From positions 2,496,001 to 2,560,000 of the forward strand of contig OZ242029.1 of NCBI GenBank assembly GCA_965205015.1: 64,000 bases of DNA. The letters run 5' to 3'. Shown one piece after another: positions 5,967 through 6,842 of this stretch (positions are counted from its first letter, which is position 1; every line of letters begins with the position of its first letter). Below the pieces are notes generated by a model. That model searched no databases and was not told where the DNA came from. It saw only the letters and a list, made by a program, of their open reading frames with translations. This DNA is from Candidatus Poribacteria bacterium (lineage in GTDB: Bacteria > Poribacteria > WGA-4E > WGA-3G). The position numbers and the translations under genes were made by a program.

Positions 5967-6350
5967 TCACGGTGCGAAACTCGATCGCAGTTTGATGCCC
6001 CAGCGTCCCGCTTCGTAGGTTAAGACGTAGAGCGATTCGTAGGAGGCAATGATCGTGCCATCGGCGCGATAGCGTGTGAACTGCGTGTCAACATGGACTT
6101 TAGATGCTGAGATATGGACAATATTGCGTCTGTCCCAACCACTATGGTGCCAGCCACGTGCAGTTAAGTTCTCTCTTATTCGCGCCCCATCCTGCTCACC
6201 CGGTTCGTTGAGGATTCGCATGTTGCCAGACGCAAGACGGTAATGCGGAAAGTGAAACGTTTTTTCCCATGCAACTATATCGAGACGATTAAATGCCGCC
6301 ATCCACGTGTCAAGCACTTCTATGATTTCAGCTTCGATTTTTTCTTTCAC
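5967..6350 (-). CDS. NTF2/SnoaL-like fold small protein
   Basis: WMAAFNRLD...FHFPHYRL...FTRYRADG...SLYVLTYEAGRWGIK; GTG start with GAGGTGA RBS. Confidence 0.75.
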   Translation of the reverse strand: MKEKIEAEIIEVLDTWMAAFNRLDIVAWEKTFHFPHYRLASGNMRILNEPGEQDGARIRENLTARGWHHSGWDRRNIVHISASKVHVDTQFTRYRADGTIIASYESLYVLTYEAGRWGIKLRSSFAP

Positions 6351-6374
6351 TGTTTCACCTCAAATAGATATTAC

Positions 6375-6801
6375 CATTGATTCTTGCGTGAAAGCCCTAT
6401 CCTTTAGGTTAGGGATGAAACGCTTTTTCCTTGACTTTTTTCTCTAAAAAGTGGTATAATGCGCTTAGCACTTGGATAGGAATGTCACCTCTCTCGCTTG
6501 AGAGAGTCCTATCCTCACCAGTGATATGGTGTGTGAGTGCGAAGTGCGACACCACTCTAAACTACATTTTGGGTATCGTTCCTGTAAGACGAATGCGGAG
6601 TAATGTCCCTACGCCTTGTATCGGTACCCCCTCATTCATTATTTTGCAGGCTGGGGTACCCTGGACCTAAACCAGATAAAACCGATCTGATTCGGAATAA
6701 GAGCCTGCGGGTGGAGCGATAATAAGACGTTCAACCCTTTAGGGAAGAACGCAATCGCTATGAAGCCGAAGCCCCACGCTTTAGCGTGTGGGTTGTATCA
6801 C
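6375..6801 (+). mobile_element. Non-autonomous IS200/IS605-family element (PATE/MITE-like), no TnpA or TnpB ORF
   Basis: Left: TTAC (6371-6374), then 16 nt, AAAG and hairpin CCCTATCCTTTAGGTTAGGG. Right: GAAG, hairpin CCCCACGCTTTAGCGTGTGGG, ending TCAC (6798-6801). Same geometry as IS608 ends. Confidence 0.85.
6431..6460 (+). promoter_or_regulatory. Sigma70-type promoter inside the IS200/IS605 element
   Basis: TTGACT-18 nt-TATAAT with TG extended -10. Confidence 0.75.
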
Positions 6802-6821
6802 CAAACGTCCGCTATTCTATC
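6693..6821 (+). ncRNA. Putative TnpB omegaRNA (reRNA)-like scaffold plus flanking guide
   Basis: GCCTGCGG...ATAAGAC...GCAATCGCTATGAAGCCGAAGCCCCACGCTTTAGCGTGTGGG..TCAC resembles IS605 right-end omegaRNA regions; the guide would be the flank CAAACGTCCGCTATTCTATC. Confidence 0.55.
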
Positions 6822-6842
6822 ACAAATTTCCTATGCATACAA
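6814..6842 (-). promoter_or_regulatory. Putative promoter for the NTF2-like gene
   Basis: Minus strand TTGTAT-17 nt-TAGAAT. Confidence 0.5.

Follow-up and report, generated by a model that had tools for sequence, protein, structure and literature searches.

The window, a 64,000-nt stretch of a Candidatus Poribacteria contig from a relative of the Poribacteria that live in sponges, carries a protein-free IS200/IS605 element of 427 bp (6375-6801) that interrupts a Poribacteria locus; the aldolase-like protein encoded in the flank has its nearest relatives (up to 94%) in Candidatus Poribacteria. Neither tnpA nor tnpB was found by tblastn anywhere in the window, and neither blastn nor model R1 found a second copy of the element there. 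Six-frame translation gave as the only trace of tnpB its last codons, ILQAGVPWT-stop, at 6641-6670. These results agree with an earlier description made from the letters alone (the sequence-only reading), which had reported intact IS200/IS605 ends bounding 427 bp and no TnpA or TnpB ORF; the end motifs that it named, TTAC/AAAG/hairpin on the left and GAAG/hairpin/TCAC on the right, lie where it placed them. We assign the following features, all on the plus strand.

6371-6374, plus strand: target tetranucleotide TTAC, the left cleavage site, in host DNA; predicted TAM
6375-6414, plus strand: left end, with DNA guide AAAG (6391-6394) and subterminal hairpin (6395-6414)
6431-6460, plus strand: sigma-70-type promoter match (11/12, extended -10), predicted start ~6466-6467
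6464-6562, plus strand: domain A', recognized by covariation; 93.8 bits with model R1
6468-6473 with 6535-6540 or, 7 nt on, 6542-6547, plus strand: stem P1 of A', in two registers
6474-6481/6507-6514, plus strand: predicted stem P2 of A'
6482-6488/6521-6527, plus strand: pseudoknot of A', 7 bp, covarying
6489-6495/6500-6506, plus strand: predicted stem P3 of A'
no coordinates given, plus strand: predicted stem P4 of A'
ending in CACT 6553-6556, plus strand: stem P5 of A'; CACT is the start-codon position of tnpB leaders
6571-6629, plus strand: domain B (class 1), with closing stem, asymmetric internal loop, bulged hairpin and 8-nt loop
6641-6801, plus strand: TnpB omegaRNA scaffold, which starts with the final nine codons and stop of tnpB (6641-6670)
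6768-6801, plus strand: right end, with guide GAAG (6768-6771), hairpin (6772-6792) and cleavage site TCAC (6798-6801)
6802-6821, plus strand: right flank, predicted guide segment, directly 3' of TTAC in the empty site

Both boundaries were established independently of these motifs, by empty-site joins and by one contig of run X19 that jumps exactly 427 nt at the element. The left flank was matched in 10 of the 22 closest loci; seven of the ten have the flanks joined directly with nothing repeated, that is, with no target-site duplication, and the remaining three have other sequence at the site. TTAC is kept in five of the seven (L001, L004, L005, L007 and L010), so the exact empty site that the sequence-only reading had suggested looking for is present in 5 of the 22 related loci. 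A third allele occurs in G002, where a full tnpB-only element of the cognate clade occupies the same insertion site, split over L101 (whole) and L002 (contig end); it differs in left end, leader and right hairpin, and the simplest account of three alleles at one site is two independent insertions. Sibling copies, which that reading had also proposed to seek, were found in all five related genomes searched, with three matches spanning most of the length at 87, 80 and 72% identity, and they sit at other sites.

The element lies 3' of a tetranucleotide that matches the DNA guide before its left hairpin, and TTAC at 6371-6374 is consistent with AAAG under the pairing rule that we tested across the family. 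The sequence-only reading had proposed this type of pairing for one element; it extends to the others, with AAAG or AAGG accompanying TTAC, AAAT accompanying TTAA, and AAAA or AAGA accompanying TTAT. Among the automatically parsed left ends 65 of 91 obeyed the rule, compared with 51 of 273 controls whose fourth base was wrong; a further 25 loci gave no parsed hairpin. Many of the misses are guides starting one base earlier, to which TCAT, TCAC or TCAA fit by eye. The window's left-end class is shared by L081, L428 and L438, and TCAC terminates all 20 rows of the aligned omegaRNA copies. In the right flank, 6814-6822 on the minus strand is a conserved extended -10-like motif pointing at an NTF2-like gene (5967-6350). 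The element sits in opposite orientation between this motif and the ribosome site of that gene; its strong promoter match faces the host promoter, and its predicted guide overlaps the host -10 box.

The 161 nt at 6641-6801 are 82-88% identical to the 3' ends of ten tnpB loci that encode a 370-aa TnpB. In an alignment of 20 copies, 10 gene-less and 10 coding, 19 of the 42 predicted omegaRNA pairs change on both sides. The 370-aa TnpB passes the NCBIfam guided_TnpB cut-off, and D, E and D motifs, which we take to be of the RuvC type, are present in four of its copies. A cognate TnpB partner was among the things to check for the element; a TnpB family that shares its 3' end, with RuvC motifs that look intact, exists in relatives: in G001 and G002 for the window's element, and in G039 for sibling families. 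Three gene-less families of G039 have a matching tnpB omegaRNA in that genome (86% over 161 nt, 87% over 106 nt and 97% over 115 nt); the remaining five queries gave weaker matches or none at all in the set of 20 tnpB ends compared. In the whole of G039 there are 87 matches to domain A, 97 to the TnpB zinc domain and one tnpA of the IS605 type.

IS605-type TnpA (130-140 bits) was detected in 3 of the 8 genomes searched, and TnpA-TnpB elements with similar hairpins occur in G004, G039 and G127 and, in part, in G049. No IS605-type tnpA was found in G001, G002, G003 or G097, and the two closest genomes, G001 and G002, have only weaker Y1 proteins among repeat arrays. We rejected the ~160-aa Y1 proteins of G001-G003 and G097 as partners, since they accompany short repeat arrays and have no end hairpins. 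Such Y1 transposase-like genes of ~160 aa are flanked by short palindromic-repeat arrays at L170, L171, L174, L186, L312, L314, L319 and L321; they resemble REP-associated tyrosine transposases and score below the NCBIfam cut-off of that family. At L182 in G004, a tnpA-tnpB element has its tnpA start interrupted by a short insertion.

Between its ends the element is laid out in the order sigma-70 promoter match, domain A', domain B and omegaRNA. The promoter search found one site, matching at 11/12, where shuffles yield 1.1 sites at 9/12 or better; it lies directly 3' of the left hairpin, in the same position in nearly all siblings compared, and a few bases separate its -10 from the start of A'. 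The interior folds better than shuffled sequence on both strands (z -2.98 for plus, -3.99 for minus), so that folding energy alone gives no strand, and we assigned the plus strand from the promoter match and the tnpB homology. None of the tnpB loci compared aligned to query positions 90-266, so the interior is not solely sequence of the parent element. The sequence-only reading of the element is supported for mobility, the pairing rule and the cognate TnpB family, but it had missed the promoter and both RNA domains.

Domain A' is a pseudoknotted fold. Over 36 sequences its pseudoknot is 98.8% paired, with both sides changed in six of the seven pairs, and the whole structure is 94.4% paired compared with 37-49% in slid controls, a comparison in which A' has the advantage that its structure was drawn from the same 36 sequences. 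The corresponding domain A is widespread: of 150 Poribacteria genomes, 104 contain matches to its model, 1,195 in all. It makes up the entire 5' leader (~95 nt) of tnpB-only elements, where it ends on the start codon, and no Shine-Dalgarno site was seen by eye in these leaders. It stands before a long ORF in 24 of the top 30 matches in G097 and in 29 of the top 30 in G127, and all seven ORFs tested behind it encode TnpB, from different clades. Gene-less elements retain the fold with the AUG replaced, and their A' forms a subtype of its own in which compensatory changes extend to the former start codon. Of the 87 domain-A matches in G039, the 30 best all belong to gene-less elements, as do 24 of a further 40 (54 of the 70 inspected).

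A 7-nt tandem repeat forms the 3' strand of P1 and changes in step with the 5' strand. A second P1 register 7 nt away is available in 52 of 57 tnpB-type and 35 of 44 gene-less-type sequences, with mean register pairing scores of 8.5 and 7.0, and 8.3 and 5.8, compared with 6.0 and 4.9, and 5.3 and 4.3, after tail swapping between sequences. The second repeat copy can also base-pair to the tetranucleotide containing the AUG, forming 3 or 4 pairs in 26 of 33 tnpB forms, and likewise to the AUG replacement in 14 of 18 other forms. We infer that the start codon may be sequestered in one P1 register and released in the other; in a folding model that omits the pseudoknot the registers differ by ~2-4 kcal/mol, which by itself is no demonstration of a switch.

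Outside Poribacteria genomes, domain A was found on five metagenome contigs and one viral contig only. Samples searched with the Poribacteria-trained model, in which a negative does not imply absence from the group, gave no match in 151 genomes from the phylum to which G151 belongs, 121 from that of G153 and five others, and none of three plasmid tnpB loci had the domain. The metagenome scan returned five stretches, all with the same promoter and leader layout, and the viral scans returned 1, 0, 17 and 0 stretches, with R1 scores for none of the 17. On the viral contig (L369:1494-1960) the promoter and domain A (47 bits) precede an ORF of ~123 aa with repeated GTHxFL-like motifs and no Pfam match, an arrangement from which we take it that domain A can lead a gene other than tnpB; the left-end hairpin was not seen. 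Two tnpB-only elements on Rhodothermus and Chroococcidiopsis plasmids (L370:540-571 and L372:550-574) have a -10 box immediately before the ATG and so look leaderless. In G145, L428 and L438 are gene-less copies with the window's left-end class, promoter, B and omegaRNA and without domain A. These copies and the two leaderless elements of other phyla indicate that domain A is not generally required. At L356 and L358 in G039 the interior behind a weak domain-A match is non-coding, longer and different from the B classes; at L356 it ends in a right-end-like hairpin.

IS605 elements move as single-stranded DNA, and covariation cannot separate RNA from single-stranded DNA (PMC5737381); A and B might accordingly be read as DNA structures in peel-and-paste transposition. 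The placement of A argues for RNA, since it begins a few bases past the -10 box, ends on the start codon and, like B, tolerates G-U pairs. It is moreover absent from all seven tnpA-bearing loci examined, in which tnpB overlaps the tnpA end, and present on the viral contig without a left-end hairpin. We consider a DNA role very improbable.

Domain B occupies the former position of the tnpB reading frame, is not tnpB sequence and was found only in gene-less elements. Class-1 B is 93% paired over 17 sequences, with 7 of 15 pairs changed on both sides and one pair poorly kept; in class 2, both sides have changed in 8 of 15 pairs. At least three further forms occur in the same place, making at least five forms in all, and B always lies 10-25 nt upstream of the omegaRNA. 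The class-1 model gave 61 matches in 19 of 150 genomes, 25 of them in G039. Domain A sits immediately 5' of B in 27 of 30 B loci examined; of the rest, one has been interrupted by a different insertion, and in the two from G145 the promoter is followed at once by B. At two positions the loop of the window's B differs from the consensus of its family. We dropped a start-stop mini-ORF in B as a candidate, since its ATG is not kept in the window copy, L081 or class 2.

Pistol ribozymes have a hairpin-loop pseudoknot followed by an A-rich linker. Domain A resembles that layout, and the position of B 10-25 nt before the omegaRNA would also suit an RNA that cleaves itself, so that A or B might be a ribozyme forming the 5' end of the tnpB mRNA or omegaRNA. 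However, none of the 4227 Rfam families, including pistol, IS605-orfB-I, HEARO and group I intron, matched the element at E<=1, the would-be catalytic junction bases vary, and B takes dissimilar forms; self-cleavage is very unlikely. The same search of 12 sibling loci returned only tRNA, SRP and group II intron matches, in the flanks; a snoRNA match inside L097 (E=0.8) was regarded as chance.

The modules have been freely recombined. A', B, left ends and omegaRNAs occur in different combinations, including with omegaRNAs of different TnpB clades, and one B class precedes at least three omegaRNA types, including the type of tnpA-tnpB elements; the DNA of A' plus B was matched in 29 of 150 genomes. 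The element might be the remnant of a tnpB element that lost its core, carried passively by TnpA and functionless inside: it keeps a leader-like domain and the last tnpB codons, and core deletions are a described source of PATEs (PMC3119063). Yet such a remnant does not account for a domain B that is foreign to tnpB and takes its several forms at one position, for an A' subtype compensated even at the former start codon, for the reshuffling of the parts, or for a family that is multi-copy in G039. Covariation inside gene-less lineages already largely refutes this reading, which we regard as very unlikely. As judged from its sequence, the 427-bp element is a cassette, more than a plain deletion remnant.

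In one study, two RNA libraries yielded contigs that cover A', B and omegaRNA of the sibling family L254, and a single 168-nt contig, with two differences, bridges all three. They place the sequence in RNA libraries but do not establish a transcript, as the family is multi-copy, the contigs have neither strand nor ends, and DNA carry-over is possible. The depth of the bridging contig, far above that of single-copy flank contigs, likewise goes with a multi-copy family and is not an expression level. Positions 6394-6501 of the window are uncovered in all four runs compared, the window's A' being too divergent from the copies in those runs, so that the gap is uninformative.

We think it probable that this is a gene-less element, moved by TnpA in trans, with a predicted ~350-nt guide RNA for a borrowed TnpB. 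For this explanation the ends, empty site, siblings, omegaRNA homology, covarying folds and shuffling are established. The TnpA of an autonomous element elsewhere would move the 427-bp element, whose own promoter would give a ~350-nt RNA of A', B, omegaRNA and flank guide. The TnpB of a tnpB-only relative would load the 3' part of this RNA, cut the empty TTAC site after excision and so allow repair to copy the element back. For movement in trans, loading, cutting and repair we draw on the IS605 literature: excision, a TnpB cut of the empty site and repair that restores the element have been described for IS605 elements (10.1101/2023.03.14.532601), and the role of a flank-derived guide follows PMC10097598.

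The RNA might instead be a decoy or regulator that soaks up TnpB, or a host factor binding A, and lowers tnpB activity. A retained, start-less copy of the tnpB leader and the abundance of gene-less copies in G039, 54 of 70 inspected matches, would fit such a role. A decoy has no need, however, of an omegaRNA and right end that are intact and still covarying, or of insertion after the same tetranucleotides as the tnpB relatives, as a working guide requires, and we find it distinctly unlikely.

Within the preferred explanation of a trans-acting guide RNA, the roles of the front domains are the weakest part, and we offer them as possible rather than probable. Domain A may cap the 5' end against RNase J, an enzyme present in all five Poribacteria genomes checked, and in tnpB mRNAs that lack a Shine-Dalgarno site it may gate the start codon by slipping between the P1 registers. 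A' would keep the cap without the AUG, and B would protect or present the untranslated omegaRNA until TnpB binds and trims it. The simplest role for A' and B, and in this model the most likely, would be to protect and present an RNA that ribosomes do not cover. In a bolder version A' plus B would be a portable cassette for hijacking, the bacterial counterpart of the Alu domain: domain A would be a Shine-Dalgarno-independent, ribosome-recruiting leader that starts tnpB translation, and the start-less A' with B would dock on ribosomes or nascent TnpB and take the nuclease from its mRNA. It would explain why one cassette sits on the omegaRNAs of unrelated clades and can outnumber its hosts, but we judge it unlikely.

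What sets these elements apart is a pair of dedicated, covarying RNA modules in the place of a lost gene, with many natural variants. How an untranslated omegaRNA survives and acquires TnpB from another locus is a question that these elements make testable. Domain A, fused to the start codons of several TnpB clades, is a candidate new class of translation-control leader, and should either A' or B improve the stability of the guide or its loading in trans, they could serve as 5' extensions for TnpB genome editors. In a literature search whose coverage lay largely outside subscription papers we found no publication on the A'/B modules or on Poribacteria TnpB, and the accessible part of 10.1101/2022.10.12.511977 contains nothing on omegaRNA loading. 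By the Rfam and literature searches, domains A' and B are uncatalogued.

Standalone omegaRNAs were reportedly first described by Altae-Tran in 2021. They are also described in PMC10691335, and PATEs often encode omegaRNAs acted on in trans (Meers et al., 10.1101/2023.03.14.532601). With both in print, the idea of a trans-acting omegaRNA is not new: the sequence-only reading's claim that the right end is omegaRNA-like and could serve a TnpB in trans is supported by the scaffold homology and the cognate TnpB in relatives, but not as a novelty. Like the PATEs of Dyall-Smith et al. (2011, PMC3119063), which are IS605-related and too short for a transposase, the window's element has near-terminal palindromes (6395-6414 and 6772-6792), termini that are not inverted repeats, no target-site duplication and no transposase gene. 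PATEs are described there as fused ends or core deletions, whereas this element adds two covarying RNA domains foreign to tnpB, and a promoter match. The PATE-like elements of G. stearothermophilus (10.1101/2023.03.14.532601) and the standalone omegaRNAs (PMC10691335) are also protein-free, and are mobilised in trans with the nuclease elsewhere, as is proposed for this element; structured 5' modules, present here, go unmentioned in the accessible parts of those papers. In the ISDra2 TnpB omegaRNA the scaffold similarly overlaps the tnpB 3' end and the right end, with a guide from the flank, and the 5' part is processed away; that 5' extension is tnpB coding sequence, where the window's element has A' and B instead (PMC10097598). 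Among structured RNAs in Rfam, IS605-orfB-I and HEARO are likewise linked to IS200/IS605, and pistol has a similar pseudoknot layout, but none gave a significant match. IS1341-type tnpB-only elements have the same ends, omegaRNA and promoter position as the gene-less element. In their Poribacteria copies a pseudoknotted leader of ~95 nt separates promoter and AUG, whereas the leader is missing from all three close plasmid-borne relatives, two of which have the -10 box directly upstream of the ATG.
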